This document shows positions 4,185 to 60,472 of a stretch of DNA of 61,259 bases, in pieces. Each line of letters opens with the position of its first letter. The first letter of the stretch is position 1. Made by a program: the position numbers and the translations under genes. The notes under the pieces were generated by a model. It did no database searches. It was not told where the DNA came from and saw nothing but the letters and a program-made list of their open reading frames with translations. Origin of the DNA: Candidatus Firestoneibacteriota bacterium (GTDB lineage Bacteria > Oederibacteriota > D2-FULL-39-29 > JBDRBU01); NCBI GenBank assembly GCA_043822305.1, contig JBDRBU010000100.1, forward strand, positions 1-61,259. The letters are read 5' to 3'.

Positions 4185-5516
4185 TTATCGTCCCATATGA
4201 AATGGGACGCTACTATTCTTTTCTTTAAATAAAATAAATAATAATCCTAAGAAGAGTATGAAATGTCCAATAAACATTCCAGAATAACTTTGTAATTCTT
4301 TGTTTAAACCGGTACAAGTAAATAAGGCCGAGATAACCAAGATATATTTAAGTATTTTTTGATTAGTTTTATCAATACCTTTTGAGAAAATGTAATTTAC
4401 TGAAACATAGTATGCAAATAGCACACTAACATAGTGATTAAGCCAGGAAGATGGTGATATAAATAAAATCAGTAAAAAGACTATAGCAAATTCGAATTTT
4501 AATAGGGTTGGATTCTTTTTAAAACTGTTTGTAAAGGCTAAGGCACATACTGTAAGTAATGAAATTTTTATTATGGTTGAGATGTTCTTAGCTTGATTAA
4601 TTGTTAAAAATGCAGGGTCAATAAAATTATGGAATTTACCAAGTAGTTTATCTGCGTAAGTTATTTTCCCGAAATCAGAGAAATGTCTAACGATGAAACC
4701 ATCTAAAGATTGATTAGAGTGTCCGTAGTATACTGTTTCTCTAATATATATATCATTTTTAAAGAATGGCAAAAACACTTGATGGACAAAGTCTTTTAAA
4801 AATATAAGGTTTTTATCAAGACCATAATAACAGGATGGAATGATTAAGAAGAATAAAATTAAGCCAATAATGGTACCAGGTAATATTTTAAAGTTTCTTT
4901 TATATAGAAAATAAAGTAATAATAATAACGGGGTTACTTTTATTGAAATTGCAAAACTTAAGCATAAACCACTTAAAAAATCGTCCCACGGGGACTTCCT
5001 TCGGTCGTCCTTTTGTATAAAGAAATACAAACTTAAGACGCTAAAGAAGAAAACCAAAATATTGCTTTGGCCTAACCACAGGTTGTCTGAAATGATGACC
5101 AGAGCCACTATGAAAACAGGTATTATAAATTTATTTTCTGAAAAGTTTATATTATTTAGTACATTTATATTGTTTTCTTCTTTATAATTCAGGATTCTTT
5201 TTATTAGTATTACTGTTATGGTTAAAAGGGATATATTAAAAATATCCCAGAGGAGTAAGGCTACTTTACTTGTAAATTGTGCAAAAAAAGACATAACACA
5301 GTAAAAGAAAGGTGGATAAGAGAAAGCTATATATTTATTGTAAAGGTCATCGTTTGCATACAGAATTTTTCTTGTAATCATCCAAAAAGGATAAAAATCA
5401 ACAGAATGTCGGGTTAAGGTGTAGATTAAGATTATTGAAAAGTAAATACCAAAATAAAGTGTACTTTTCTTTTTGAGAAGTTCTTTGAAATCTTTTAGCA
5501 TATATTGATTATACAA
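4185..5516 (-). CDS. GT-C fold membrane glycosyltransferase (DUF2029/GT87-like)
   Basis: 443 aa, more than 10 predicted TM segments, FSYPPFFY motif in the first loop. The only minus-strand gene in the window. Confidence 0.6.
   Translation of the reverse strand: MYNQYMLKDFKELLKKKSTLYFGIYFSIILIYTLTRHSVDFYPFWMITRKILYANDDLYNKYIAFSYPPFFYCVMSFFAQFTSKVALLLWDIFNISLLTITVILIKRILNYKEENNINVLNNINFSENKFIIPVFIVALVIISDNLWLGQSNILVFFFSVLSLYFFIQKDDRRKSPWDDFLSGLCLSFAISIKVTPLLLLLYFLYKRNFKILPGTIIGLILFFLIIPSCYYGLDKNLIFLKDFVHQVFLPFFKNDIYIRETVYYGHSNQSLDGFIVRHFSDFGKITYADKLLGKFHNFIDPAFLTINQAKNISTIIKISLLTVCALAFTNSFKKNPTLLKFEFAIVFLLILFISPSSWLNHYVSVLFAYYVSVNYIFSKGIDKTNQKILKYILVISALFTCTGLNKELQSYSGMFIGHFILFLGLLFILFKEKNSSVPFHMGR
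4189..4213 (+). repeat. REP family B copy (cgtcccat-atgaa-atgggacg-CTAC)
   Basis: 8-bp stem hairpin plus CTAC tail. 24/25 identical to 35960-35984. Overlaps the last codons of the minus-strand GT gene. Confidence 0.8.
4981..5009 (-). repeat. Family D 29-mer inside the GT CDS (translated DDRRKSPWDD)
   Basis: Its reverse complement gacgaccgaaggaagtccccgtgggacga matches the pheT copy near 59531-59560 at 27/29 nt, in the same reading frame. Confidence 0.7.
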
Positions 5517-9250: not shown

Positions 9251-9286
9251 AGAAAGTAAGGAAAGTGAAGTAAGAAAAGAAAAAAT

Positions 9287-10540
9287 ATGGATAAAATAAT
9301 AATTGAAGGTGGGAAAAAGTTAAAAGGGAGTGTTTCAATATCAGGGTCTAAAAATGCAGCCTTACCCATTATTGCCTCTACATTGCTGGTAGATAAGGAA
9401 TGTGTTATAGACAATGTACCATTTTTAAAAGATGTTGGGGTGATGAATAAACTTATAAATATTTTAGGCGGAAAAGTTGAATTTAAAAAAAACAGATTGT
9501 ATGTTAATAACAAAAACATAAATAAGTTTAAAGCGCCATATGAGTTAGTAAAGACTATGAGAGCTGGAGTATATGTGATGGGAGCGCTTCTGGGGAGGTA
9601 TAAAAGATTTGAAGTAGCATTACCTGGCGGATGTGTTATAGGTGAAAGACCAATAAATCTTCATATTAATGGATTTAAAAAATTAGGGGCAAAGATAAGC
9701 GTAGAACATGGTTATGTAAAAGCAATCGCGAAGAAATTACATGGTGCTGAGATTTATTTGGATGTTGTCAGTGTAGGTGCCACTGTTAATATGATGATGG
9801 CCAGTGTTTTAGCCGAAGGAAGAACTGTTATAAAAAATGCTGCGCGCGAACCGCACATAATTGATCTGGGAAATTTTTTAAATAAAATTGGTGCAAGGAT
9901 AGGTGGGCTTGGAACAGGAGAAATAGTAGTTGAAGGTGTAAAAGAATTACATGGTGGAAGATATGAGATTGTTCCAGATTATATAGAAGCCGGTACCTTT
10001 ATGGTTGCCGCGGGTATAACGAATGGCCATATTACATTAAAGAATGCTCCAACCTGTCAATTGGGGGCTATTGAAGATAAGTTAAAAAAGGCTGGTTTGT
10101 TGATAGATAAAAGAGAAAATGAAATTACTATTTGTGGAGGTAATATTCCAAAACCGGTTGATATTGAAACACTTCCTTATCCTGGCTTTCCAACTGATAT
10201 GCAGGCCCAGTGGACGGCATTTATGAGTGTGAGTCATGGAACTAGTGTTATAAAAGAAACTATCTGGCCAAAAAGATTTATGCATGTGTTAGAACTAAAT
10301 AGAATGGGAGCAGATATTTCTATAAAGGGAAATACGGCCATTATTAAAGGTGTGAAAAATTTAAGTGGTGCTCAAGTGATGGTTTCTGATTTAAGAGCAG
10401 GTGCATCATTAATTTTAGCCGGATTAAGAGCAACCGGGAAAACAGAAATTTCAAGGGTTTATCATCTTGATAGAGGATATGAAAAAATAGAAGATAAATT
10501 AGAAAAACTTGGTGCCAGAATTAAAAGGGTGAAGGGTTAA
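9287..10540 (+). CDS. murA: UDP-N-acetylglucosamine 1-carboxyvinyltransferase
   Basis: 417 aa. N-terminus MDKIIIEGGKKLKGSVSISGSKNAALP is typical of MurA/EPSP-fold enzymes. Confidence 0.96.
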   Translation: MDKIIIEGGKKLKGSVSISGSKNAALPIIASTLLVDKECVIDNVPFLKDVGVMNKLINILGGKVEFKKNRLYVNNKNINKFKAPYELVKTMRAGVYVMGALLGRYKRFEVALPGGCVIGERPINLHINGFKKLGAKISVEHGYVKAIAKKLHGAEIYLDVVSVGATVNMMMASVLAEGRTVIKNAAREPHIIDLGNFLNKIGARIGGLGTGEIVVEGVKELHGGRYEIVPDYIEAGTFMVAAGITNGHITLKNAPTCQLGAIEDKLKKAGLLIDKRENEITICGGNIPKPVDIETLPYPGFPTDMQAQWTAFMSVSHGTSVIKETIWPKRFMHVLELNRMGADISIKGNTAIIKGVKNLSGAQVMVSDLRAGASLILAGLRATGKTEISRVYHLDRGYEKIEDKLEKLGARIKRVKG

Positions 10541-12284: not shown

Positions 12285-12449
12285 GGGTATTGGTGGTGTC
12301 AAAAGTAATATGAAAGAATTTTTCATAAATACTAATAAATAAAGGCTAAATCTCTTCCATGAGTGGGGAGGGAGCATAGAAAGGGTAAATCTGGAAATAA
12401 TCTAAGCAAAGTAAGAGGTCAATGGTAGTTATTGGTAATCGCATTATTG

Positions 12450-12472
12450 GTAGTCGCAGTCTTTAGCCTGCG
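12450..12472 (-). repeat. REP family A copy, inverted
   Basis: gtagtcgcagtctttagcctgcg is the reverse complement of family A with 1 mismatch. Pairs with 12624-12646. Confidence 0.75.
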
Positions 12473-12623
12473 TTAGTTTTTGTTGTAAACATTGAAATAT
12501 CCATGTATGAAATCAAAGAGAAAAAGCACTGATTATCATTAGATAATTACAGATGAAAAATTTAACAAAGCATATAGCATATATTTTGGAGAACCCGGTG
12601 AGGGAAGGATTGGTAGTAAATAC

Positions 12624-12646
12624 CGCAGGCTAAAGCCTGCGACTAC
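12624..12646 (+). repeat. REP family A copy
   Basis: cgcaggctaaagcctgcgactac, identical to 642-664. Confidence 0.8.
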
Positions 12647-12742
12647 CAAAAAACACTACCAGAAAACATTACCAAAAAACATTATAGAAACATTAATATG
12701 TCAAACTTTTTGACAATACCAAGGTATTTTAGAGGAGAAAAT

Positions 12743-20412: not shown

Positions 20413-21197
20413 TGAAAGACATTTTAAATAAAATAATTGAAAACAAAAAAAAAGAAGTTGCAAAGAGCAAGAAAAGTCTTTGTATCAAAATACTAAAAGA
20501 AAAAGTATATACCTTGCCACCATCTAAATTTAAAAAATCTTTATCTTCTCACTTCTCAATAATCGCAGAAGTTAAAAAAGCATCTCCATCAAAAGGTATA
20601 ATGAGGAAAGATTTTAATCCTGTCCAGATTGCAAAGATTTACGAGAAAGGCAAAGCAGATGCTATTTCTGTATTAACTGATAACAAGTATTTTAAGGGGA
20701 ATTTATCATATTTAAAAAGGATAAAAAATATGGTGTCTGTCCCTATTTTAAGGAAAGATTTTATTATAGATGAATATCAGATATACGAGTCCAGATATTA
20801 TGGTGCAGATGCCGTATTACTTATAGTCTCTATTTTAACAGAAAATAAATTAAGGTATTTTATTAAATTAGCCAAAAAAATAAATATGGATTGTTTGGTT
20901 GAAGTCCATAGTCAGAAGGAAATAAAAACAGCACTTAAATGTAATGCTGATATTATTGGAATTAATAATAGGGATTTAAGAACATTTAAAACGGATTTAA
21001 AAACAACAGAGAGATTAATAAGGTATATGCCGGATAATAAAATAGTTATAAGTGAGAGTGGAATTAAAACAAAAGAGGATATAAAATATTTGAAAAGTTT
21101 GGGTGTGGATGGAGTACTTATTGGTGAAACATTCATGAGAAGTAAAAATATAACAAGTACTTTAAAAAAATTCTCAATAGAAAGGAAAAATATATGA
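20412..21197 (+). CDS. trpC: indole-3-glycerol phosphate synthase
   Basis: 261 aa. E.KKASPSKG, PILRKDFI.D.YQI, VEVH, INNRDL motifs. Confidence 0.95.
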   Translation: MKDILNKIIENKKKEVAKSKKSLCIKILKEKVYTLPPSKFKKSLSSHFSIIAEVKKASPSKGIMRKDFNPVQIAKIYEKGKADAISVLTDNKYFKGNLSYLKRIKNMVSVPILRKDFIIDEYQIYESRYYGADAVLLIVSILTENKLRYFIKLAKKINMDCLVEVHSQKEIKTALKCNADIIGINNRDLRTFKTDLKTTERLIRYMPDNKIVISESGIKTKEDIKYLKSLGVDGVLIGETFMRSKNITSTLKKFSIERKNI

Positions 21198-22012
21198 TTA
21201 AATATGGTCTATGTAGCGAGATATTTAAAGAATGGGAGTGGGAGAAAACCTGTAAATATGTATCAAAAATTGGTTATCATGGAATTGAAATAGCTCCATT
21301 TGTATTTGCAGAGTCAGTTACTCAAATAGACTCTAAAAAGCGGAAAGAAATAAAAGATATATCTAAGAAATATAATTTGGAAATAACTGGATTACATTGG
21401 CTACTTACTAGTCCTAAAGGATTATATATAACTACAATAGATTCTGATTTAAGAGAAAAGACAAAAAATTATTTTTTTGAATTAATAAAGTTTTGTAGTG
21501 ATTTAGGTGGAAGAATAATGGTTATAGGTTCACCCAAGCAAAGAAATATACCAGAAGATATGACATATGAGGAAGCATGGAAAATCTCAAAAGATTTCTT
21601 TAACGATTGCTCTAAGATAGCAAAAAAAGAAAGTGTTTATCTTTGTCTTGAACCTTTACCGATTGATGAGACAAACATATTCACTACAGTTGAAGAGGTT
21701 GTTAAGTTTGTAAAAGAGATAAATCATCCTAATTTTAAAATGATAGTTGATGTGAAGTCAATGTCTGCTGAAGGTAAGCCGATATCTGCTTTGATAAAAT
21801 CCGCAAAAGATTTTGTTTTACATATTCATGCTAATGATTCGAATAGAAGAGGCCCAGGTTTTGGGAATACTGATTTTATACCTATAGCCAAGGCATTAAA
21901 AGACATTAATTACAATGGTTATTTATCAGTAGAAGTTTTTGATTTTACACCTAACCCCGAGACAATTGCTGAAAAAAGTTTAGAATATTTGAAAAGTATA
22001 TGGAAAAAGTAG
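21194..22012 (+). CDS. sugar-phosphate isomerase/epimerase (xylose-isomerase-like TIM barrel)
   Basis: 272 aa. Pattern Y.GIEI, then LEP, then H..D, typical of the AP_endonuc_2 fold. Not a trp gene. Confidence 0.65.
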   Translation: MIKYGLCSEIFKEWEWEKTCKYVSKIGYHGIEIAPFVFAESVTQIDSKKRKEIKDISKKYNLEITGLHWLLTSPKGLYITTIDSDLREKTKNYFFELIKFCSDLGGRIMVIGSPKQRNIPEDMTYEEAWKISKDFFNDCSKIAKKESVYLCLEPLPIDETNIFTTVEEVVKFVKEINHPNFKMIVDVKSMSAEGKPISALIKSAKDFVLHIHANDSNRRGPGFGNTDFIPIAKALKDINYNGYLSVEVFDFTPNPETIAEKSLEYLKSIWKK

Positions 22013-22016
22013 ATAT

Positions 22017-22517
22017 ATGTTTTTAAAAGATACCTATATAAAAATCATTATTATAGTAACAGTTTTTGTTATTTTGATAATGGGCGGTATCCATCTTTAT
22101 CTAAGGAATAACCCAACATTACCTCTTAGTAGCAGGCCTTATTTGATTAAAAAGGTTATTGATGGAGATACGCTAATCATTGAAAATGGTGAGAGAATAA
22201 GACTAATTGGAATTGATGCACCTGAAACGCATCATCCAGTGATTTCAGCACAGAGATTTGGACAGGAATCAGCAGATTTTTTAAAAAAGATGGTAGAAAA
22301 CCATAAATGTATGTTAGAGTATGAACCAGATAGAGTAAGAGATTCTTATGAAAGAATTCTTGCTTATGTGTATGTAAATGGAAATTTAATAAATGCCGAG
22401 ATGATAAAAATGGGATATGCATATGTATACACAAGGTTTCCATTTAAAAAGATGGAAGAATTTATAGTTTTAGAGAAACAAGCAAGAGATAAGAAAATAG
22501 GATTATGGGAAAAATAA
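22017..22517 (+). CDS. membrane-anchored thermonuclease (SNase-like)
   Basis: 166 aa. N-terminal TM helix. V.DGDT..I..G..IRL.GIDAPE and ER.LAYV motifs of staphylococcal-nuclease homologs. Confidence 0.85.
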   Translation: MFLKDTYIKIIIIVTVFVILIMGGIHLYLRNNPTLPLSSRPYLIKKVIDGDTLIIENGERIRLIGIDAPETHHPVISAQRFGQESADFLKKMVENHKCMLEYEPDRVRDSYERILAYVYVNGNLINAEMIKMGYAYVYTRFPFKKMEEFIVLEKQARDKKIGLWEK

Positions 22518-22963
22518 TGGATTTAGATGAGGGAGCGAAACTTAAAAGGTTTATAATAAGAGTAGTGGTTACCACTTTAGCCATACTTATAATTCTATTT
22601 TTTGTTAAGATTTGGTTTTTTAATAATAAAGCTAAAACTCCTGATTTCAAGCAACAGGCACCAATATCTATTTCTCTTAATGATGTTACTAAATATTATG
22701 GTAAATATGTAATAGTAGAAGGAAAGATTACCAAAACATATAATTCTGGAAAAGCATGTTTTCTTAATTTTAATGTAAATTATAGGCGATATTTAACAGC
22801 AGTGATTTTTGCTTCATCTTTTTCGCAATTTCCTCCTAATCCAGAGAATTATTATTTAAATAAAACAGTTAAAGTTGTTGGTACCATAAAAGAGTATCAA
22901 GGAAGTCCCGAGATAATTTTAAATAATAAAGAGCAAATTGAAGAGGGACAGACACCATATTAA
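22505..22963 (+). CDS. membrane-anchored OB-fold-like protein
   Basis: 152 aa. One TM helix, then Y.GK.V.VEGKI....NSGKACFLNF....V.V.G.I.EYQG.PEI, which resembles an OB-fold. Overlaps the SNase stop by 13 nt. Confidence 0.5.
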   Translation: MGKIMDLDEGAKLKRFIIRVVVTTLAILIILFFVKIWFFNNKAKTPDFKQQAPISISLNDVTKYYGKYVIVEGKITKTYNSGKACFLNFNVNYRRYLTAVIFASSFSQFPPNPENYYLNKTVKVVGTIKEYQGSPEIILNNKEQIEEGQTPY

Positions 22964-22965
22964 TA

Positions 22966-22994
22966 TTGACATAAAGATGAAGGGATGATAAAAT
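22966..22994 (+). promoter_or_regulatory. promoter of the RAYT gene (transcript probably leaderless)
   Basis: TTGACA (22966-22971), 17 bp spacer, TGaTAAAAT (-10 at 22989-22994). The ATG lies 6 nt downstream with no SD. Confidence 0.55.
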
Positions 22995-22999
22995 AACAT

Positions 23000-23671
23000 A
23001 TGCCAAGAATAGCGAGAGTAGTAGGAGAAGGATTACCACACCATATAACCCAACGTGGAAATTACAGGCAAAAAGTATTAGAAAAGAGGGAGGATTTTGA
23101 AAAATATTTGTCACTTCTGGAAGAACAAAGCAGAAAATATGAAACCAGGATTATTTCATATTGCATAATGAATAATCATGTGCATTTTATAGCAATACCT
23201 GAAAAATCAGATTCGTTAGCGAACACATTCAAATATGTGCATATGAAGTATTCGCAGTATGTGAATAAGAAAAAAGGAATGTCAGGGCATTTATGGCAGA
23301 GCAGGTTTTTTTCGAGCGTAATTGACAAAGATTATCTATCGGTGGCCATGAGATATGTAGAAAGGAACCCGGTAAGAGCAAAAATGGTAAAGAGAGCCGT
23401 AGAGTGGGAGTGGTCAAGTGCTATCCAACATTGTGGATACAAAAGCAAAAGCATGATGGTTGAAAATATAACAAGTTTAACAGGGATGAGAGAAACAGAG
23501 TGGGAGAAATATCTCGAAGAGAAAGAAGATTCTGAAGTATTGGAAAAGCTAAGGAAAAATACAAGTACAGGACGGCCAATAGGAAATGAGGGATTTGTGG
23601 ATATGCTAGAGAAGAAGTTAAAACGAGTATTAAAGATAAAGCCTGCCGGCAGGCTGTTAAAGAAGAGATAA
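23000..23671 (+). CDS. REP-associated tyrosine transposase (IS200/IS605-like Y1/HUH)
   Basis: 223 aa. HUH in NNHVHFIAIP. Catalytic-Tyr helix AMRYVERNPVRAKMV. N-terminal HH.TQRGN. Layout is typical of RAYT/TnpA-REP. Confidence 0.8.
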   Translation: MPRIARVVGEGLPHHITQRGNYRQKVLEKREDFEKYLSLLEEQSRKYETRIISYCIMNNHVHFIAIPEKSDSLANTFKYVHMKYSQYVNKKKGMSGHLWQSRFFSSVIDKDYLSVAMRYVERNPVRAKMVKRAVEWEWSSAIQHCGYKSKSMMVENITSLTGMRETEWEKYLEEKEDSEVLEKLRKNTSTGRPIGNEGFVDMLEKKLKRVLKIKPAGRLLKKR

Positions 23672-23676
23672 TTAAT

Positions 23677-24312
23677 ATGGTGTCTGTCCCCTTAATTAAA
23701 ATATGTGGAATAACCAATATAGATGATGCTCTTATTTCGGTTGATTATGGGGCAGATGTTTTGGGTTTTATCTTTGCGAAAAGTTTAAGACAGATCACTC
23801 CTCAAAATGCAAGAAAGATAATAAAAAAATTACCACCATTTATTGGAAAAGTGGGAGTTTTTGTAAATGAATCCCCTCATTATATTCGAAAAATTGTCCA
23901 GGAATGCGGATTAACCGAAGTTCAGTTACATGGTGAAGAGATACCAGAATTATGTGGAGAGTTGTGTCCTTTAACCGTAATAAAAGCAATAAGAGTAAAA
24001 GATGAAAATGATATAAAAATACTAAGTGCTTATACTTCAGTTTCTGCTTTTCTTTTAGATTCGTTTGTTTTTGATAAAAAAGGTGGAACCGGAAAGAAAT
24101 TTGATTGGAAATTAGCAATATCTGCAAAGAAATATGGTAAGCCAATAATACTTTCAGGTGGTTTAACCCCCGACAATGTTCTTACGGCCATTAAACTTGT
24201 CCAACCATATGCAGTAGATGTTTGTAGTGGTGTTGAGACAAAAGCAGGTAAAAAAGATAAGAAAAAAATAAAGGAGTTTATAAATAAAGCGAGAAAATAT
24301 GCTACCAAATAA
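23677..24312 (+). CDS. trpF: phosphoribosylanthranilate isomerase
   Basis: 211 aa. ..IKICGIT.. N-terminus. The first 5 codons (MVSVP) lie inside the RAYT right inverted repeat. Confidence 0.92.
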
Positions 24313-25408
24313 AAAAGGTTATTTTGGAAAATATGGCGGGATTTTTGTTCCCGAGACACTTATCCCAGCCTTAAAAGAATTGGAATATGAGTATCTTAAG
24401 GCCAAGAGAGATAAAAAGTTTCAGAAAGAGTTTAAATACTATCTTACTCATTATGCTGGTCGTCCAACTCCTTTATACTTTGCGGAAAAGTTAACAAAAA
24501 AATTAGGCGGAGTGAAAATTTATCTTAAAAGAGAAGATTTGCTTCATACGGGTGCTCATAAGATAAATAATACTATTGGCCAAATTTTACTCGCTATAAG
24601 AATGGGCAAGAAAAGAGTTATAGCCGAAACCGGTGCAGGACAGCATGGTGTGGCTACGGCGACTGTGGCGGCTAAATTTGGACTTAAGTGTGATATTTAT
24701 ATGGGGGAAGAAGATTGTAAGAGGCAGTCTTTAAATGTTTACAGGATGAAATTACTTGGTGCAAAAGTTATACCGGTTAGTTCGGGTACCAAAACATTAA
24801 AAGATGCTTTAAATGAGGCCTTAAGAGACTGGGTGACAAATGTAAAAACCACATATTATCTTCTGGGTAGTGTAGCCGGACCACATCCTTATCCAATGAT
24901 TGTCCGAGATTTTCAGTCAATAATTGGCAAAGAAGCATTAAAACAGATATTAAGTTTAGAAGGTAAACTTCCAAATTATTTAATTGCATGTGTTGGCGGA
25001 GGAAGTAATTCAATAGGTTTATTCTATGTATTTTATAAATATAAAAAAGTTAAATTTATTGGTGTCGAAGGTGGAGGATTGGGTATTCACACAAAAAAAC
25101 ATGCGGCAACTTTAACAGCAGGTAGCCCCGGTATCTTACATGGTTCATTTTCATATTTATTGCAAGATAAATATGGGCAGGTTTCTTCTACTCATTCTGT
25201 TGCTGCTGGTTTGGATTATCCTGGTGTTGGTCCTGAGCATAGTTTTTATAAAGATACTGGTCGGGCTATTTATTTATCTACTACAGATAAAGAAGCATTG
25301 GACGCATTTCATTTACTTTCAGAAATTGAAGGAATCATTCCCGCCTTAGAGTCCGCCCATGCTTTAGCCTATTTAATAAAACATAAAAATAAATTCAAAA
25401 AAAAATGA
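24299..25408 (+). CDS. trpB: tryptophan synthase beta chain (3' end frameshifted)
   Basis: [12 protein letters not shown]-lysine motif and GGGSN. The ORF stops right after an A9 run (25397-25405). The conserved C-terminus [16 protein letters not shown].. continues in the +1 frame to 25469. Confidence 0.92.
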
Positions 25409-25446
25409 TATAGTTATTGTTAATTTATCCGGCAGAGGAGACAAAG

Positions 25447-35002: not shown

Positions 35003-35971
35003 ATGATGACTATAGAGTACAAATTAACAAGAGAAGCAATGGGTGAAACACTTGTTAAGTTAGGAAAAATAAATAAAAATATTGTAGTTTTAGATGCAGA
35101 TTTATCAAAATCTACAATGACCAATAAATTTGCAAAAGAATTTCCTGATAGATTTTTTGATATGGGTATAGCCGAACAGGATATGATAACAACCTCAGCC
35201 GGTTTAGCCTTAACAGGAAAAATCCCATTTTGTGCTACATATGGAGTATTTTTACCAGGTAGATGCTGGGATCAGGTAAGAATATCTGTCTGTTATTCAA
35301 ATTTAAATGTAAAATTATGTTGCGCCCATGGTGGTGTATCTGTTGGGGCTGATGGTGCCACTCACCAGGCGTTGGAAGATGTAGCCTTGCTGAGGTGCTT
35401 ACCAAATATGGTAATTATTATGCCTGCGGATGCAATTGAAATGGTAAAATGTGTTGAAGCAGTAGCAAAGTATGTAGGCCCAGTAGCCATAAGATTTGGA
35501 CGAGAAAAAGTTCCAATAATTACTAAGCCAGAGGATGTATTTGAAATTGGCAAGGCAAATCTTATAAGAGAGGGTTCTGATGTAACTATAATTGGTTCAG
35601 GAGGATTAATTCTTTATGAGTGTCTGTTAGCCGCAGAAGAGCTTGCCAAAAAGAAAATATCAGTTAGAATAATAAATATGCATACTATAAAGCCTATAGA
35701 TGAAAGTGCAATTATTAAAGCAGCAAAGGAAACAGGAGCAATCGTTACCGCAGAAGAACATCAGGTTATGGGAGGATTAGGTTCTGCTATAGCCGAAGTA
35801 GTTGTTAAAAATACGACGGTGCCTATGGAGTTTATCGGGATTCAGGATAGATTTGGCGAGTCTGGAACTCCCAGAGAGCTATTTGATGAGTTTGAACTAA
35901 GTGCGAAGTTTATACAGCAAGCGGTGGAAAAAGTATTAAAGAGGAAAAATAGAAATGATCGTCCCATATAA
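35003..35971 (+). CDS. transketolase, C-terminal (pyrimidine-binding) subunit
   Basis: 322 aa. ..FFDMGIAEQ.M...AGLA..G..PF..TY.VF.. pattern. No N-terminal subunit gene is adjacent. Confidence 0.85.
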   Translation: MMTIEYKLTREAMGETLVKLGKINKNIVVLDADLSKSTMTNKFAKEFPDRFFDMGIAEQDMITTSAGLALTGKIPFCATYGVFLPGRCWDQVRISVCYSNLNVKLCCAHGGVSVGADGATHQALEDVALLRCLPNMVIIMPADAIEMVKCVEAVAKYVGPVAIRFGREKVPIITKPEDVFEIGKANLIREGSDVTIIGSGGLILYECLLAAEELAKKKISVRIINMHTIKPIDESAIIKAAKETGAIVTAEEHQVMGGLGSAIAEVVVKNTTVPMEFIGIQDRFGESGTPRELFDEFELSAKFIQQAVEKVLKRKNRNDRPI

Positions 35972-35984
35972 AATGGGACGCTAC
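35960..35984 (+). repeat. REP family B copy
   Basis: cgtcccatataaaatgggacgctac. Supplies the last codons (RPI) and the TAA stop of the transketolase ORF. Confidence 0.8.
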
Positions 35985-36001: not shown

Positions 36002-37615
36002 ATGAAAAGAGTACTTATTGTGATATGTTTTATACAGGTATTTTTAACTTTTAAAATAATAGTCGCTGTCCCCTTTTTTGCTAGTCCACCGGCACCTGGA
36101 GTAAAAGTTGATAAAATACCAAAAGATGGTGTGCATAAATTACCTGATGTATCTTATTTAAGAGCAATGGGTACTCCGGCAAGTGAAATAGCAAAGGCAA
36201 TTGGGACAACTGGGACAAAAACACTTGTGGTAATATTTGTTAATTTTTCAGGTACGACATTTGGAGGAGAGGAGATAGCAAGTTATACAACTCTCTCAAC
36301 TGGTTATTTAGATAGATTAAAAGCATATATTACCGAAATATCATATGGAACATTAACGCTAATTATTACAGTAAAAGATAATAGTGGTGCAGGATATAGT
36401 CTTTCAAATTCAATGTTATACTATGGTTCAAATAATGAAGCAAAAACTGCTGATGGAACATTATTTAACGATGCATTAGTTGCCGCAGGTGTTAATGGTG
36501 GCTATGATGCGGTTATGGTCGTTCATGCTGGTACCGGTCAAGAATCAGAAGATGTAAATAGTAATATCTGGTCAATGTTTGTTGATTGGGGTTCTTTGAA
36601 ACGAGGGTTTAGGGAAGGAACTACAGTTCCAGCTAAAGAATTAGGTTCATTAAAACCTTATGGAGTTTTATGCCATGAATTTGGTCATCAGTTAGGGCTT
36701 CCAGACTTGTATAACACAGACACAGGTTCATCAAATGTGGGCAAATGGGATTTAATGGATTATGGGGCGTGGGTAAATAATGGGGATTCACCACCACATC
36801 CGTCTACCTGGTGTAAAGCATTTTTAAGTTGGGTTAGTCCAACATTAGTTAATAAGGCGTCAGATTTAAATATAAATTATTTTGAAGGAAATTCTCCTTC
36901 TACATTTAAGATTCCAATTCTTGGAAGTTCTACTGAGTATTTTCTAATTGAATATAGAAAACAGACAGGCTTTGATACTAATTTACCTGGTCAAGGTGTT
37001 TTAATCTGGCATATCGATGACACAGTAGGAGATATTGCACTAAATAATATTAATAATGATTCCAATCATTTAAGAGTAGCATTAAAAGAAGCAGATATGG
37101 ATAAGGATGCTGGAAGCAATAAAGGAGAGGGGACAGACACATATCCAACAGGTTCTAATATTTTTACTAATCCTTATAGTAATGGTTATTCTAATATATC
37201 AAGCAGTATAACTATATTTGATTTTTCTGGATTAGGTTCTGATACAATGACAGCAAAACTCTCTATGATATCTGCCACTACTAATTTAGTGTTAAAAAAT
37301 GCGCTTAATTTTCCTAATCCGGTAAAAAATGTTGCAAGGACTACAATAAGAGTTAGTTTTAGTAGACCCTTCACTACGGGTAATTTGAAGTTGTATAATT
37401 TGGCTGGTGAGTTGATATTAGATAATTCTTTAACCAGTTCAGAATTTAATACCCAGGCCTCACAAGATAATAGTGAATGGATATATGATTATGTATGGGA
37501 TTTGAAAAACTCTAATGGAAGTTTAGTCGGAAGTGGTTTATATTTTTATGTGGTAACAGCAGAGATTGGAAGTGAAAAGCAGGTTAAAACAGGAAAGTTG
37601 GCGATAATAAGATGA
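36002..37615 (+). CDS. secreted M6-like (immune inhibitor A-type) metalloprotease with a T9SS-type C-terminal sorting domain
   Basis: 537 aa. Signal peptide. Zn motif HEFGHQLGLPDLY. C-terminal ~80 aa ..LNFPNPVKN...I.... ..GLYFY.V......... is like a Por/T9SS CTD. Confidence 0.75.
   Translation: MKRVLIVICFIQVFLTFKIIVAVPFFASPPAPGVKVDKIPKDGVHKLPDVSYLRAMGTPASEIAKAIGTTGTKTLVVIFVNFSGTTFGGEEIASYTTLSTGYLDRLKAYITEISYGTLTLIITVKDNSGAGYSLSNSMLYYGSNNEAKTADGTLFNDALVAAGVNGGYDAVMVVHAGTGQESEDVNSNIWSMFVDWGSLKRGFREGTTVPAKELGSLKPYGVLCHEFGHQLGLPDLYNTDTGSSNVGKWDLMDYGAWVNNGDSPPHPSTWCKAFLSWVSPTLVNKASDLNINYFEGNSPSTFKIPILGSSTEYFLIEYRKQTGFDTNLPGQGVLIWHIDDTVGDIALNNINNDSNHLRVALKEADMDKDAGSNKGEGTDTYPTGSNIFTNPYSNGYSNISSSITIFDFSGLGSDTMTAKLSMISATTNLVLKNALNFPNPVKNVARTTIRVSFSRPFTTGNLKLYNLAGELILDNSLTSSEFNTQASQDNSEWIYDYVWDLKNSNGSLVGSGLYFYVVTAEIGSEKQVKTGKLAIIR
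36056..36072 (+). repeat. Repeat family K copy inside the protease signal peptide
   Basis: ataatagtcgctgtccc (encodes IIVAVP). 16/17 identical to 11854-11870. Confidence 0.5.
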
Positions 37616-40649: not shown

Positions 40650-40736
40650 GGCAATAATTTATAGATTTTTACATAAAAAAATGGTATGATTTCATAAAGG
40701 AGGTGATTAAATATTAAATATGTGGAAAGTAAATAC

Positions 40737-40759
40737 CGCAGGCTAAATCTTGCGACTAC
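40737..40759 (+). repeat. REP family A copy (degenerate stem)
   Basis: cgcaggctaaatcttgcgactac, 21/23 to consensus. Shares an extended left flank (gtaaatac) with 12616-12646. Confidence 0.7.
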
Positions 40760-40789
40760 CCAGACCAAAATAAAAGGAGGATATTTATT

Positions 40790-43218: not shown

Positions 43219-43240
43219 ATAAGCTGGCTCCATTAGATGA

Positions 43241-43274
43241 CAACCCCCTAACCCCCTTTATTAAGGGGGAATTA
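43241..43274 (+). repeat. Repeat family E copy (caaccccctaa-ccccctttattaaggggg-aatta)
   Basis: C5/G5 7-bp stem hairpin with conserved flanks. Other copies at 54028-54062, 57065-57099 and a rearranged one at 56954-56990. Confidence 0.8.
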
Positions 43275-48611: not shown

Positions 48612-48686
48612 GGCGGCATAGCCAAGTGGTAAGGCAGCGGTCTGCAAAACCGTTATTCCTCGGTTCAAGTCCGAGTGCCGCCTCCA
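48612..48686 (+). tRNA. tRNA-Cys (GCA), CCA encoded
   Basis: Cloverleaf folded by hand. Acceptor ggcggca/tgccgcc, anticodon loop cuGCAaa, T-arm ctcgg-ttcaagt-ccgag, discriminator U73 (typical for Cys), 3' CCA. Confidence 0.9.
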
Positions 48687-52465: not shown

Positions 52466-54039
52466 TGTCAAAAGATTTGTTTAAATCACAGTCAGGATTA
52501 AGAAGAGATGTTGGTGTCTGGGGCTCCTTTATGTGGGGTTATGCAGATGTAGGAGCTAATGTTTATGTTGCCTTAGGAATTGTTATAGCCGCAGCCCAGG
52601 GAGCAGCCAGTTTAGCCTTTGCTGTTGCTGGATTAGTATACATTTTAATAGGACTGGCCTATACTGAACTTGCTTCTGCTTATCCTATTGCCGGTGGTGG
52701 TCAGTATTTTTCCATGAGAGGGTTAGGTGATATCTGGGGATTCATAAGTGGCTCATCCTTGCTTTTGGATTATACAATTGATATTGCTCTTTTTGCCACT
52801 GCTTCTGCTGGATATATTAACTTTTTCATGCCATATATTTTAGGCCACAGTATTAAAGATTATGTGATTAATATCGGCCCTTTTGCTATAAATTATTTCT
52901 GGTATCTTGAAACTTTAGCCATAATACTTATTCTTGTTTTTATTAATATAAAAGGAGTTAAGGAATCATCTCGTTTAAATGAAATATTTGGAGTTATTGA
53001 GATATTAACTGAATCAGGATTAGTGATACTTGGTTTTGTCTTTGCCTGGAGTCCAGAGAAATTTTTGTATCAGTGGCATACCCAACAGCCAAGTTTAAAT
53101 CAATTTATGTATGGTACATCTCTGGCCATAATATCCTTTATTGGTTTAGAATCTATTTCTCAGGCAGCACAGGAGACTCGAAGGCCGGCAACAATAATAC
53201 CAAGGACATCTATAGCGTTGATTTTTACAGTTTTTCTCACGGCCATATCTTTTTCTACATTAGGATTAGGTGTTTTAGACTGGCAGGTTTTAGCCGAACA
53301 TCAAGCTAACCCTGTGGCAAAATTAGCAGATGCTATTCCATATATAGGAATAATAGCAGGACCTTTTACTGCTGTTATGGGTGCAATCATACTGTTTATA
53401 TCTTCAAATACAGGTGTTATGGGTGCATCTCGTTTAACATTTTGTATGAGTCAGTTTGGTCTAATTAGTAAATGGTTTGATTATGTTCATCCTAAATTTA
53501 AAACACCGGTTAGAACTATACTTGTATTTTCTTTTATTGCAATTGTAGAACTGACAGTTGCTTTTTTAACACCAAAGGCGATAGATACATTAGGTAATTT
53601 ATATGCTTTTGGAGCTACATTAGGATATATATTAGTGTTTTTAGCACTCATTAGATTAAGATACATAGACCCATATTCACCTCGACCATATAAAGTACCT
53701 TTTAATATTAAGGTTAAATATCATGGCCATGAGGTAGAATTTCCGTTGTTTGCTGTCATAGGAACAATTGGAGTAAGTACAATCTTTTTTATGGTTATTT
53801 GGACACATTCTATTGGGAGAATAGCGGGTCCAGCCTGGGTCATTCTATGTTTAATATATTATTTTATATACAGAGCAAAGAATAAACTTCCTTTAGTCGG
53901 AAGTGTTGAAAGGAATTGGGAGAAAGAACAGATAGAAGTTTTAGAATCTGCAGAGGAGTATGATTTGGTTGAGCAATATAAGATTGCCTTGAAAGATAGA
54001 GACAAGAAAGGACAACCACCTAACCTGACAACCCCCTAA
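52465..54039 (+). CDS. APC-superfamily amino acid permease
   Basis: 524 aa with about 12 TM helices. N-terminal GYADVGA..YVALG and ..AY.ELASA.P.AGG.Y pattern. Confidence 0.8.
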   Translation: MSKDLFKSQSGLRRDVGVWGSFMWGYADVGANVYVALGIVIAAAQGAASLAFAVAGLVYILIGLAYTELASAYPIAGGGQYFSMRGLGDIWGFISGSSLLLDYTIDIALFATASAGYINFFMPYILGHSIKDYVINIGPFAINYFWYLETLAIILILVFINIKGVKESSRLNEIFGVIEILTESGLVILGFVFAWSPEKFLYQWHTQQPSLNQFMYGTSLAIISFIGLESISQAAQETRRPATIIPRTSIALIFTVFLTAISFSTLGLGVLDWQVLAEHQANPVAKLADAIPYIGIIAGPFTAVMGAIILFISSNTGVMGASRLTFCMSQFGLISKWFDYVHPKFKTPVRTILVFSFIAIVELTVAFLTPKAIDTLGNLYAFGATLGYILVFLALIRLRYIDPYSPRPYKVPFNIKVKYHGHEVEFPLFAVIGTIGVSTIFFMVIWTHSIGRIAGPAWVILCLIYYFIYRAKNKLPLVGSVERNWEKEQIEVLESAEEYDLVEQYKIALKDRDKKGQPPNLTTP

Positions 54040-54062
54040 CCCCCTTTGTTAAGGGGGAATTA
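54028..54062 (+). repeat. Repeat family E copy overlapping the permease stop codon
   Basis: acaaccccctaaccccctttgttaagggggaatta. The TAA stop (54037-54039) lies inside the repeat. Confidence 0.8.
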
Positions 54063-56896: not shown

Positions 56897-56953
56897 TATA
56901 TATTATATGTAATGGTAAATAGTCAGTAAAAGCCGTGAGGATTATATTCCCAT

Positions 56954-56990
56954 ATTCCCCCTTTGTTAAGGGGGATCAAGGGGGTTGTTG
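56954..56990 (+). repeat. Repeat family E copy with its flank transposed to the 3' side
   Basis: att-ccccctttgttaaggggg-atcaagggggttgttg. Same hairpin and loop orientation as other copies, but the aaccccc flank appears inverted on the right. Confidence 0.7.
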
Positions 56991-57064
56991 TTATGAATAT
57001 CTATGACAATACGATATGGAATGGTAACGATTATTAGAACTCATAAAATTTAAGCGTTAAAAGA

Positions 57065-57099
57065 ACAACCCCCTAACCCCCTTTATTAAGGGGGAATTA
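57065..57099 (+). repeat. Repeat family E copy
   Basis: acaaccccctaaccccctttattaagggggaatta. Its left flank is an 11-nt perfect inverted repeat of 56979-56989. Confidence 0.8.
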
Positions 57100-57133: not shown

Positions 57134-57160
57134 GTCGGGGTCAGAGACGACCCCGACTAC
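57134..57160 (+). repeat. REP family C, intact copy
   Basis: gtcggggtc-agagac-gaccccgac-TAC. 9-bp perfect stem with CTAC tail. Confidence 0.75.
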
Positions 57161-58378: not shown

Positions 58379-60472
58379 ATGAAAATCACATATAATTGGT
58401 TAAGAGATTATGTAGATTTGAATTTATCACCAGAGAAGTTATGTGATAAATTTAATTCAATAGGATTAAATGTGGCTAGTTTTTCTCCTATTGGAAATGA
58501 TGATTTTTATTATGATTTGGAAATTTTACCAAATAGACCAGATTGTTTAAGCATAATTGGCCTAGCCAGAGTTCTTTCAGCTATATTGAATAAATCTTTA
58601 AAACTTCCAAAATTCAAAATAAAGGAAGATAAGAAAACAAAAATAAATGAATATATTAAAGTTCAGATAAAAACTCCAAATTTATGTCTAAGATATTCGG
58701 CCAGAGTAGTTTTTAATCTAAAAATAAAAGAATCTCCCATTTGGATGCAAGTTAGACTTAAAAGTGTAGGTATAAAGTCAATAAACAATGTTGTCGATGT
58801 TACAAATTATGTATTAATGGAAACGGGTCATCCATTGCATGCTTTTGATTATGATTTAATAACAGGTAAAACCATTCTAATTAGAAATGCTAATGAAGAT
58901 GAGGAAATCATAACCTTAGATGGAATTAGTAGAAAATTAAGTCCGGAGATGTTAGTAATTTCAGATAAAAAAAAGGCAATAGCCTTAGCCGGTATAATGG
59001 GGGGCCAAGAAACAGAGATAAGTTCCAATACTTCTAATATATTGCTTGAATGTGCTTATTTTAACCCGATTAATATAAGAAAAACTTCAAAAATGCTAAA
59101 TTTGTCCACTGAATCTTCTTATAGATTTGAAAGAGGTGTTGATTATGAAGGATTAGTTTATGGTCTAAATAGAGCTACTTACTTAATTCAGAAATTAGCC
59201 GAAGGAAATGTAGTTAGTGATTATGTTGATTTATATCCCAAGAAAATAACTCCTATAAAAATAAAAACGAGATATACAAGAGTAAATAAGATCTTAGGCA
59301 GTAACATTAAAAAGCAAGAGATGATATCTTGTTGTCAGAGATTAGGATTTATAGTTTCAAAAAAAACTAATGACTATTTTGCCGTTCAGGTTCCAAGTTT
59401 TAGAACAGAAATTTATAAAGAAATTGATATCATCGAAGAAATTGCTCAAATTTATGGTTATGATAAGATTAAAGAATCTATTCCAAAGATAGAATTAAAA
59501 GTTTTCCCCGGAAAATTAAATAATAAATTAGACGACCAAAGGAAGTCCCCGTGGGAGGATTTTATAAGGGAAAACTTAGTCTCTCAAGGGCTAAATGAGG
59601 CTATTAACTTCTCGTTTATGAGTAAAAATTGGTTTGATAAAATGGGATTGTTAAAAGAAAATCCTTTAGTAAAAGGTTTAATAGGTATAACTAATCCTTT
59701 GAATGAAAATTGGAATACTTTAAGATCTACATTACTTCCGGGATTACTTGGCAATGTTGCTTTAAATGTTGGAAGTTGTGGAAATAAAAATGTTAAAATT
59801 TTCGAGACAGGTAAAGTGTTTTTTCAAAAAGATAACTTTTTAGAAGAGTTTAAATCGTTAGGCATTATCATCACCGGAAATATCCATGAAAAAGGTTGGC
59901 TACAAAAAGATGAAAGTGTGTCTTTTTATTATTTGAAAGGAGTGATAGAATATTTATTTAAAAATTTAAATATTGAATTTAAACTCCAAAATGATTTAAA
60001 TGAAATTTTTCAGTCTAATTGTTCTACTTCTATAGTAGTCAAAGATGAAAAGATAGGTATTTGTGGGGAAATATCAAAAAATATAATTGAAGCATTAGAC
60101 ATGAAAGGCAATGTTTATTATTCTGAAATCAAGTTACCACTAATAGAAGGATATGCAAACTTTAGCAAAACATATTCAGCCTTAGCAAAATTTCCAGGTG
60201 TGAGGAGAGATATTTCTTTTATTATAAATAATAATATTTCTGCCCAAAAAATTAGCGAGCATCTTAAAAGTTTTAAAAATGATCTTGTGGAGAAAATAGA
60301 TATTATTGATGTGTATGAAGGAAAACAAATAGGTGATGGTAAAAAGAGTTTAACCTACTCAATAATATATAGAAGTTTAGATAGAACATTAACAGACAAA
60401 GAAGTTGATTTAATGAATAATAATCTAATAGATTCAGTTTCTAATATATTTAACACTCAAATTAGAAAGTAA
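58379..60472 (+). CDS. pheT: phenylalanyl-tRNA synthetase beta subunit (short form, no B2/tRNA_bind OB domain)
   Basis: 697 aa. MKITYNWLRDYV.. runs almost directly into ..LEILPNRPDCLS... B3/B4, B5 and FDX-ACB regions are present. Confidence 0.93.
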   Translation: MKITYNWLRDYVDLNLSPEKLCDKFNSIGLNVASFSPIGNDDFYYDLEILPNRPDCLSIIGLARVLSAILNKSLKLPKFKIKEDKKTKINEYIKVQIKTPNLCLRYSARVVFNLKIKESPIWMQVRLKSVGIKSINNVVDVTNYVLMETGHPLHAFDYDLITGKTILIRNANEDEEIITLDGISRKLSPEMLVISDKKKAIALAGIMGGQETEISSNTSNILLECAYFNPINIRKTSKMLNLSTESSYRFERGVDYEGLVYGLNRATYLIQKLAEGNVVSDYVDLYPKKITPIKIKTRYTRVNKILGSNIKKQEMISCCQRLGFIVSKKTNDYFAVQVPSFRTEIYKEIDIIEEIAQIYGYDKIKESIPKIELKVFPGKLNNKLDDQRKSPWEDFIRENLVSQGLNEAINFSFMSKNWFDKMGLLKENPLVKGLIGITNPLNENWNTLRSTLLPGLLGNVALNVGSCGNKNVKIFETGKVFFQKDNFLEEFKSLGIIITGNIHEKGWLQKDESVSFYYLKGVIEYLFKNLNIEFKLQNDLNEIFQSNCSTSIVVKDEKIGICGEISKNIIEALDMKGNVYYSEIKLPLIEGYANFSKTYSALAKFPGVRRDISFIINNNISAQKISEHLKSFKNDLVEKIDIIDVYEGKQIGDGKKSLTYSIIYRSLDRTLTDKEVDLMNNNLIDSVSNIFNTQIRK
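59531..59560 (+). repeat. Family D 29-mer inside pheT (translated DDQRKSPWED)
   Basis: gacgaccaaaggaagtccccgtgggagga, 27/29 identical to the minus-strand copy at 4981-5009. Core aaggaagtcccc[a/g]tggga also occurs at 598-616. Coordinates are +/-1 nt. Confidence 0.7.

Follow-up and report, generated by a model that had tools for sequence, protein, structure and literature searches.

A probable TIRtron lodged between an OB-fold gene and trpF in the trp operon of a Candidatus Firestoneibacteriota bacterium

We analysed a stretch of 61,259 nucleotides from a Candidatus Firestoneibacteriota bacterium (contig JBDRBU010000100.1), referred to below as the window, and found in its trp operon a small cassette built around a gene for a single-stranded DNA (ssDNA) transposase of the HUH/Y1 type. 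The genes of the region are arranged in the order trpD, trpC, a xylose-isomerase-like TIM-barrel gene, an SNase gene, an OB-fold gene, the Y1 gene, trpF, trpB and trpA. Between the OB-fold gene and trpF, the Y1 gene is bracketed by a left and a right terminal inverted repeat (TIR-L and TIR-R), and the whole makes up a compact, self-contained cassette of 748 bp (22944-23691) that is very probably a TIRtron. As such it is a further member of a class already described and biochemically uncharacterised, whose enzymes are named TIRYTs. An earlier note on this DNA had assigned the gene to the tyrosine transposases associated with repetitive extragenic palindromic (REP) sequences, known as RAYTs; its observations on the cassette stand and its interpretation does in part, but this label does not.

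The cassette and its Y1 protein

The coordinates of the cassette, its neighbours and the other repeats of the window are collected in Table 1. The sequence GGGACAGACACCATATTAAT occupies positions 22945-22964 and recurs, exactly and in reverse complement, at 23671-23690, precisely where the earlier note had placed a perfect 20-nt inverted repeat; 100 shuffles gave no match at three or fewer mismatches. The two arms reach into the neighbouring genes in the way that had been noticed before, in that the OB-fold gene ends within TIR-L, which contributes its final five codons (GQTPY) and its TAA stop, and TIR-R provides the ATG and the codons MVSVP of trpF. Sixteen-nucleotide words of the repeat occur three times in the window, or four times when one mismatch is allowed. 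The GC content is 0.36 over 23001-24000 and 0.29 in the two kilobases before. An Rfam scan gave no match at the cassette locus.

A promoter directly adjoins TIR-L. It matches at 11 of 12 positions, carries the TG extension, and is the sole strong promoter-like site on the plus strand between 22400 and 24000. The end of its -10 box lies 5 nt from the ATG of the Y1 gene and a purine-rich Shine-Dalgarno sequence is absent ahead of that ATG, all in agreement with the earlier note; a leaderless Y1 mRNA, with a predicted transcription start on the ATG itself, is implied.

The assignment of the 223-residue protein to the HUH/Y1 transposases is secure, because profile matches, invariant motifs and fold matches agree. 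Pfam PF01797 (Y1_Tnp) matches residues 14-123 with a score of 59.2 bits (cut-off 23). The best NCBIfam match is NF047646 (REP_Tyr_transpos) at 71.2 bits, which is under its equivalog cut-off of 80, and the NCBIfam IS200 model NF033573 reaches 27.4 bits against a cut-off of 55. The HUH motif is H60-V-H62 within NNHVHFIA and the Y motif is Y119-x3-N123-P124 in the tyrosine helix AMRYVERNPVRAKMV, the same features from which the transposase had originally been recognised. Residues H60, H62, Y119 and N123 are invariant in an alignment with 24 homologues, all of which match both PF01797 and REP_Tyr_transpos. A helical C-terminal extension of about 80 residues (approximately residues 140-223) is kept throughout this alignment (GRPxG...F...LE...GRPKK), and Pfam and NCBIfam scans of the 24 family members gave no match to this C-terminal domain. 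A profile built from the alignment matches PDB entries 2EC2 and 4ER8, the latter being E. coli TnpA-REP, with the HUH motifs aligned. An AlphaFold2 model (predicted local distance difference test score 88.2) has 4ER8 as its top fold match (E 2e-7, template modelling score 0.70 on the target), followed by the TnpA proteins of IS608, IS200 and ISDra2, and the top 29 Foldseek matches are all Y1 transposases. From sequence and model, the protein is predicted to act as an ssDNA endonuclease/transposase.

Class 2 of the TnpA Y1 proteins has the signature Y---NP together with a HuH motif with a hydrophobic centre and WQ, whereas the IS200 class has Y---Q (Quentin et al. 2018, PMC6006769). The motifs NHVH, HLWQ and YVERNP are present in the window protein; judged by its Y-x3-NP motif, it is a member of class 2 (TnpA-REP-like) and not of the IS200 class. 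Over 5,900 homologues were obtained in a database search with the protein. Among them the best 120 are all about 220-250 residues long and 48-60% identical over their full length, and those with a name come from Omnitrophota, Scalindua, Thermodesulfobacteriota and Auribacterota. Looking up the exact protein in public assemblies gave no record, and scanning viral contigs with the family alignment gave no relative.

Table 1. Coordinates of the cassette, its neighbours and other repeats in the window
Feature	Position	Strand	Remarks
TIR-L, (A)GGGACAGACACCATATTAAT	22944..22964	+	perfect 20-nt complement of 23671-23690
Sigma-70-type promoter, TTGACA-17-(TG)ATAAAAT	22966..22994	+	directly adjoins TIR-L
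Probable TIRYT gene, class-2 HUH/Y1 ssDNA transposase, 223 residues	23000..23671	+	profile, motif and fold matches
GC-rich perfect 16-nt palindrome, AGCCTGCCGGCAGGCT	23640..23655	.	within 3' end of the Y1 reading frame; lineage-specific
TIR-R, ATTAATATGGTGTCTGTCCC(C)	23671..23691	-	starts on last base of the Y1 stop codon
Third, solo TIR-like copy in trpC, AAATATGGTGTCTGTCCCTATTT	20721..20747	-	same orientation as TIR-R; encodes KNMVSVPIL
Upstream neighbour, gene for membrane-anchored OB-fold protein	22505..22963	+	native last six codons and stop replaced by TIR-L sequence
Downstream neighbour, trpF (phosphoribosylanthranilate isomerase)	23677..24312	+	Pfam PRAI 170 bits; native first four codons replaced by five TIR-R codons
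REP family A, GTAGTCGCAGGCTTTAGCCTGCG (minus strand)	642-664, 12444-12478, 12618-12652, 40730-40768	-	GTAG tag
REP family B, GTAGCGTCCCA-loop-TGGGACG	4189-4213, 35960-35984	-	GTAG tag; two copies
REP family D, GTAGTCGGGGT-loop-ACCCCGA	57135-57160	-	GTAG tag; one copy
Repeat family CCCCCTAACCCCCTT-tatt-AAGGGGGAATTA, hairpin after C-rich direct half-repeat	43238-43274, 54026-54062, 56942-56978, 57063-57099		four copies, second half of window
Repeat of 27-38 nt with CGTCCCACGGGGACTTCC (CGTC-type small hairpin GTCCC-ACG-GGGAC)	592-618, 4972-5009, 59531-59568	both	three copies

The unit at other loci and a relative without it

We compared the DNA around eight of the homologues and searched the neighbouring flanks for inverted repeats. 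Such repeats were found in the matching place at seven of the eight loci (our contigs L081, L083/L084, L089, L098, L099, L102 and L103), and L085 retains the right arm alone. In the window and at these seven loci the left arm ends 35-42 nt ahead of the ATG, and the right arm starts at -6 to +1 relative to the stop codon, which it overlaps or adjoins. The left-arm core GGGACAGACACC is common to the window, L089, L099 and L103, with close variants in L081, L083, L098 and L102. The arm consensus is AAATAGGGACAGACACCTATTTA, as compared with (A)GGGACAGACACCATATTAAT in the window and AGGGACAGACCCTATTTAAT in L081; the core common to them is GGGACAG(A)CACC, and the homologue arms carry (A/G)GGGACAG. 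Since this core flanks homologues at seven other loci, the proposal that the 20-mers are the ends of the element is upheld.

The promoter shows the same arrangement at seven of the eight homologue loci, with TTGACA, TTGACT or TTGTAA right after the left arm, a TAnAAT-like box at a spacing of 17 nt from it, and the ATG a further 5-6 nt on. Because this layout recurs from locus to locus, the promoter and the leaderless start are, as far as the sequences indicate, conserved parts of the cassette unit. The genes on either side differ at every homologue locus and include gas-vesicle/bactofilin genes with a PIF1 helicase gene, glycosyltransferase, radical-SAM and response regulator genes, among others. 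The whole unit of repeats, promoter and gene is therefore found again, beside homologues that are 50-60% identical, between unrelated neighbours. From this recurrence of one geometry and one core in unrelated surroundings we conclude that the unit, and not the gene alone, is inherited or transferred. We also considered an ancient shared insertion next to one OB-fold gene; this was rejected, as in L081, which has the closest homologue, a gene other than the OB-fold gene lies upstream.

The consensus arm is self-complementary (AAATAGG-GACAGACA-CCTATTT) and folds as ssDNA with -6.4 kcal/mol (z = -6.5). The arms of the window copy do not fold (z = 0.8 and -0.5), and their outer halves consist of sequence of the neighbouring genes; the arms in L083 and L098 likewise are without the AAATA outer part. 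With the outer half of the hairpin missing from both arms, the window copy is probably fixed in place rather than mobile. At 1283-1331 of L084 the right repeat of homologue P0005 is tandemly doubled, with copies 29 nt apart, and the same gene in L083 has a single copy, which suggests that a gain or loss of repeats can occur independently of the gene.

The nearest genomes are those of Candidatus Firestonebacteria. Two of their contigs, L001 and L002, are without the Y1 gene, and their TrpF starts MTIVKICG or MTKIKICG. A closer relative, L106, was found by way of TrpF, which is 82% identical to that of the window, the OB-fold protein being 77% identical. Its genes are arranged as OB-fold gene, 127-nt spacer, trpF (MRDVLIKICG), trpB, trpA and a GAF/HD gene, and the cassette is absent. 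Neither 20-mer is present either, and trpF is without the MVSVP start. The earlier note had named their retention in relatives without the gene as a refuting outcome; as it is not what is seen in L106, the comparison again marks the 20-mers as element ends. Homology of the OB-fold gene with L106 (378-821) runs through ...QIE, after which the window has EGQTPY* and L106 has VIDDSH*. Pairwise alignment with L106 places the left junction at 22943|22944, directly after ...GAAG, and the right junction at about 23691|23692, with trpF homology resuming at about 23692-23695. The 748 bp of the window (22944-23691) thus stand against 186 bp in L106, made up of the OB-fold gene's final six codons with its stop, the whole spacer and codons one to four of trpF. 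Because L106 has ordinary sequence at the cassette position, the cassette is, on this alignment, a replacement of both gene termini and the spacer, an insertion plus loss rather than a clean insertion. The earlier description of a cassette stitched in without breaking any reading frame is right in that no neighbouring frame is broken, but 186 bp including both gene termini were exchanged.

Other features of the operon were observed along with the cassette. In this lineage trpC and trpF are split by unrelated genes (window 21194-22963, L002 5648-6564, L105 8933-10538). The interval in the window holds genes for a TIM-barrel sugar-isomerase-like protein, a secreted SNase and the membrane OB-fold protein; L002 has an extra symporter and dehydrogenase, and L105 an extra Macro-domain gene. 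Further downstream, trpB seems frameshifted at a run of nine A residues (ttcAAAAAAAAAtgat, 25390-25410): frame 0 ends in ...KFKKK*, the conserved C-terminus (IVNLSGRGDKDVGGLLS) goes on in the +1 frame, and the called TrpB has 369 residues compared with 388 in relatives. The break may be an assembly error in the homopolymer or else a real frameshift/slippage site. The GC skew is positive in every kilobase of the window (0.08-0.44) and the large open reading frames that were inspected are all on the plus strand; it seems that the whole contig (1-61259) belongs to a single replichore and is co-oriented with replication. It carries one tRNA (48612-48683).

Copies of the repeat outside the cassette, and other hairpins

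The third copy of the repeat, within trpC, was also part of the earlier note, which had seen 17 nt encoding MVSVP. These 17 nt (20727-20743) are indeed exact and common to both arms, and the identity with the left arm extends to 18 nt (AGGGACAGACACCATATT); read on the minus strand, the copy is AAAATAGGGACAGACACCATATT. On its outer side (AAATA / CCCTATTT) it resembles the right arm of the family consensus, GGTGTCTGTCCCTATTT, more closely than the two arms of the cassette do. At the site of the copy TrpC has the same length as in relatives, and MVSVP is absent from all of 47 further, more distant TrpC sequences, which mostly read x-V-S/G-L-P. In the cassette-free contig L105 the site is AAA GCA GTA TCT CTT CCT and matches at 10 of 17 positions, as it does in L002. 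The nearest sequence, L104 (TrpC 80% identical), belongs to a contig from run ERR3478701 that ends ahead of the OB-fold/trpF junction. Its site, AAA ATG GTA TTT GTC CCT, encodes MVFVP and matches at 14 of 17 positions (ATGGTATTTGTCCCTATT, ATGGTATTTGTCCC). Because of this match, part of the trpC resemblance is judged to be older than the lineage of the window; we estimate that a match of 14 of 17 is about what is expected by chance in 61 kb. Pure chance as the source of the window copy was rejected, given 17 of 17 positions within 2.2 kb of the element, no match in 100 shuffles and the absence of MVSVP from the other TrpC sequences.

The most economical idea for this copy would be short-patch conversion or template switching between nearby repeats. 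Under a wider proposal, which we consider rather unlikely, the three repeats within 3 kb would not be independent: either the TIR was written into trpC as a length-neutral patch, by TIRYT strand exchange or by template switching, or the trpC copy, TIR-L and TIR-R form long-range pairings of 18-20 bp in the trp mRNA that gate the start of trpF. Were the patch reading true, the repeats would spread by overwriting similar sequence and not by insertion.

One more match was observed in the window. At 37127-37146, within a peptidase-M6-like gene (36002-37615), the sequence GGGGACAGACACATATCC, which encodes GEGTDTYP, agrees with the TIR core in 11 of 12 positions and has the full GGGGACAG motif. It is the sole match in the window besides the three known copies (shuffle mean 0.01), and is possibly another TIR-like patch in coding sequence. 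We also scanned a metagenome collection, of which the window's own genome is not part, for the exact 20-mer. It occurs at three loci, two of identical sequence, none of which has a Y1 gene or similarity to the window. In L087/L088 the 20-mer lies in AT-rich DNA that is poor in open reading frames and may occur there by chance. In L086, a bacterial contig of 48.5% GC, it is intergenic and has both halves of the hairpin (9284-9324, AATATGG...CCATATT; ssDNA fold z = -4.3). The DNA around it, about 9.3 kb on one side and about 1.1 kb on the other, is without a Y1 gene, and the copy could be the solo TIR of some related element.

The window also holds hairpin repeats that had been said to saturate it. 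This is overstated: five families with 13 copies in all were counted in the 61 kb, and every copy is more than 10 kb away from the Y1 gene. At least seven of the hairpins, in three families, have a GTAG tag, which is on the minus strand; these families (A, B and D), none of which resembles the TIR, are canonical GTAG REPs in the sense in which Di Nocera et al. (PMC3733652) describe them, and those nearest to the Y1 gene are at 12624 and 35960. Two REP A copies form an inverted, REPIN-like doublet at 12444-12652, 139 nt apart. No RAYT gene proper was found in the window.

The palindrome in the 3' end of the Y1 reading frame, AGCCTGCCGGCAGGCT, had been linked to REP family A. It is present and perfect as reported, but extends over 16 nt (23640-23655) and not over 14 nt (23641-23654), and is the sole GC-rich palindrome of at least 14 nt in the window. 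What suggests such a link is that the 10-mer TAAAGCCTGC is found in the window only in this palindrome and in two REP A copies. However, the palindrome holds the REP A stem halves in swapped, inside-out order and is absent from the homologues in L081, L083 and L085. It coincides with the GRP motif of the family, which here is GRL, and it is terminator-like on the minus strand only.

Relation to known elements and significance

Di Nocera et al. (2013, BMC Genomics 14:522, PMC3733652) described RAYT-like genes that have long terminal inverted repeats on either side, with no relation to GTAG repeats, and named the enzymes TIRYTs and the units TIRtrons. The repeats have the motif GGGGWSAS, lie at a fixed distance from the Y1 gene with an overlap at its 3' end, are in some cases self-complementary, and occur in low copy number. 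Twenty of 26 TIRYTs fall into TnpAY1 subclass 2.1, which "probably corresponds" to TIRYT (Quentin et al., PMC6006769) and is RAYT group 1 of Bertels et al. (2017, PMC5581495, as cited in PMC6006769). Members of subclass 2.1 have a C-terminal extension with similarity to helix-turn-helix (HTH) domains (Bac_DnaA_C, HTH_23 or HTH_28), and REPs in association with them were not found in published searches (PMC6006769).

The window cassette is like a TIRtron in several ways. Its Y1 gene is bracketed by TIRs unrelated to GTAG REPs, either arm being without GTAG and without an individual hairpin; the outer end of its right arm, GGGGACAG, agrees with GGGGWSAS at all eight positions; and the distance between TIR and coding sequence is about constant in the window and at the seven other loci. 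The protein has NHVH, WQ, Y---NP and the C-terminal extension, with no REP nearby, low copy number and patchy taxonomy, and probably belongs to subclass 2.1 on these features. There are also differences, in that the window member sits in a biosynthetic operon and donates stop and start codons to its neighbours, its arms are without the outer half of the hairpin, and a third copy of the repeat lies in coding sequence. The conserved promoter that abuts the TIR and has a leaderless start is not mentioned in the sections of PMC3733652 and PMC6006769 consulted. At 223 residues the protein is shorter than members of subclass 2.1, which are described there as "among the longest".

A number of points weigh against the TIRtron reading. 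The left arm, AGGGACAG, agrees with GGGGWSAS at seven of eight positions only. No HTH match to the C-terminal extension was obtained with Pfam even at E <= 1 (Bac_DnaA_C, HTH_23, HTH_28), and the placement in subclass 2.1 is by features (motifs, C-terminal extension and repeats) and not by the authors' profiles. Searches for homologues, paralogues and the 20-mer found neither a second copy of the cassette nor another insertion site of the same element, and any mobility of this copy is putative. The relative with the empty site is only 77-82% identical, so that the ancestral junction may differ from the 186 bp of L106. The trpC copy is left unaccounted for. Finally, of the two works found to use the term (PMC3733652, PMC6006769), neither gives biochemistry of any TIRYT.

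Were the gene a canonical RAYT, it would be the domesticated mobiliser of the GTAG hairpins in a REPtron and the 20-mers merely local flanks. This would suit the NCBIfam result, with REP_Tyr_transpos as the best match and all 24 homologues matching it, and the fold match to E. coli TnpA-REP, a protein that likewise has HUH and a single catalytic tyrosine and is encoded by a single-copy gene bracketed by inverted copies of its presumed substrate. It would also suit the presence in the window of at least seven GTAG hairpins in three families with a REPIN-like doublet, the suggestive sharing of TAAAGCCTGC, and the absence of these REPs from 22 kb of the cassette-free relatives L105/L106, a weak correlation. 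However, the profile score stays below the equivalog level, and unlike TnpA-REP the protein has a C-terminal extension of 80 residues. The substrate candidates are TIRs of 20-29 nt without the GTAG tag and not REP hairpins, and it is the same TIRs, not REPs, that flank the gene at seven other loci. All REPs lie more than 10 kb away, the palindrome has its halves swapped and is not shared by homologues, and in published searches (PMC6006769) the vicinity of subclass 2.1 genes was free of REPs. The genome may also have a true RAYT at another place. We regard the RAYT reading as improbable and rename the gene TIRYT; beyond the shared 10-mer there is no positive evidence that it mobilises the hairpins of the window. 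An ordinary IS200-type insertion sequence, autonomous and multi-copy, is a highly improbable alternative. The Pfam family is indeed called "Transposase IS200 like", the IS608 and ISDra2 TnpA proteins are among the fold matches, and the cassette resembles IS200/IS605 elements in its HUH/Y1 fold and in being a compact single-gene unit of about 0.7 kb; the chemistry of ssDNA hairpin recognition is likely to be common to both. Those elements, however, are multi-copy, have Y---Q instead of Y---NP, and have unlike left and right subterminal hairpins in place of TIRs, whereas the window encodes a 223-residue protein with a C-terminal extension, present once in 61 kb and well below the cut-off of the IS200 model.

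A fully domesticated host gene is a possible but on balance unlikely explanation, in which the repeats would be operator or structural sites, the cassette immobile, and the function cellular, for example in ssDNA processing. The gene is single copy in the window, and tblastn found no Y1 paralogue there or in 1.29 Mb of trpF loci. The context of P0054 is identical in the nine places shown (24 contigs read), the left repeat adjoins the -35 box at every locus, and the window arms have no hairpin potential; class-2 genes are described in the literature as low copy, with mobility lacking direct evidence (PMC6006769). However, in other genomes repeats, promoter and gene form one unit amid unrelated neighbours, and the cassette is absent from a syntenic relative, from which we conclude that the unit moved at some time. 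Even less can be said for the inverted repeats being local products of the trp operon, for example duplicated and inverted from the MVSVP segment of trpC, an origin that we consider extremely unlikely. It draws on the identity of 17-18 nt between trpC (20726-20743) and both arms, and on the presence of ATGGTATTTGTCCCTATT at this site in L104 trpC already. A derivation of the arms from trpC was nevertheless rejected, since the same core flanks homologous Y1 genes in other genomes with unrelated neighbours and no trpC nearby; moreover, the exact 20-mer with full hairpin potential is found in the unrelated, 48.5%-GC L086.

With the cassette taken as a TIRtron, a course of events can be proposed. 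Horizontal transfer would have brought the cassette into the spacer between the OB-fold gene and trpF, and its flanks would then have been trimmed, or lost at integration, until the repeats supplied the upstream stop and the trpF start. The enzyme would bind its own repeats through the hairpin present in the family consensus, and would cut and rejoin ssDNA at their outer edge, 5' of GGG. Binding to TIR-L beside the -35 box probably autoregulates the promoter. The leaderless design would leave the transposase untranslated from read-through trp transcripts, and trpF-trpB-trpA may be served by the cassette's own transcript or by reinitiation after termination 6 nt upstream.

The novelty of the locus is modest and lies in the family-wide fusion of the left repeat to a promoter with a leaderless start, in the donation of stop and start codons within an operon for which an empty site is available, and in the trpC copy of the repeat. 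Renaming the gene from RAYT to TIRYT breaks its supposed link to the REP hairpins of the window. The window and the seven other loci together define the unit. It has a repeat of about 20-29 nt with the core GGGACAGACACC; the left copy is fused to a promoter that gives a leaderless mRNA, and the right copy overlaps the stop codon. The matched empty site and the defined repeats are concrete substrates for a first biochemistry of a TIRYT. With more than 5,900 homologues of a single query, and several phyla among the annotated matches, TIRtrons are very widespread, and this locus illustrates the way in which such a cassette may lodge in an essential biosynthetic operon without polarity, through the stop and start codons that it donates.

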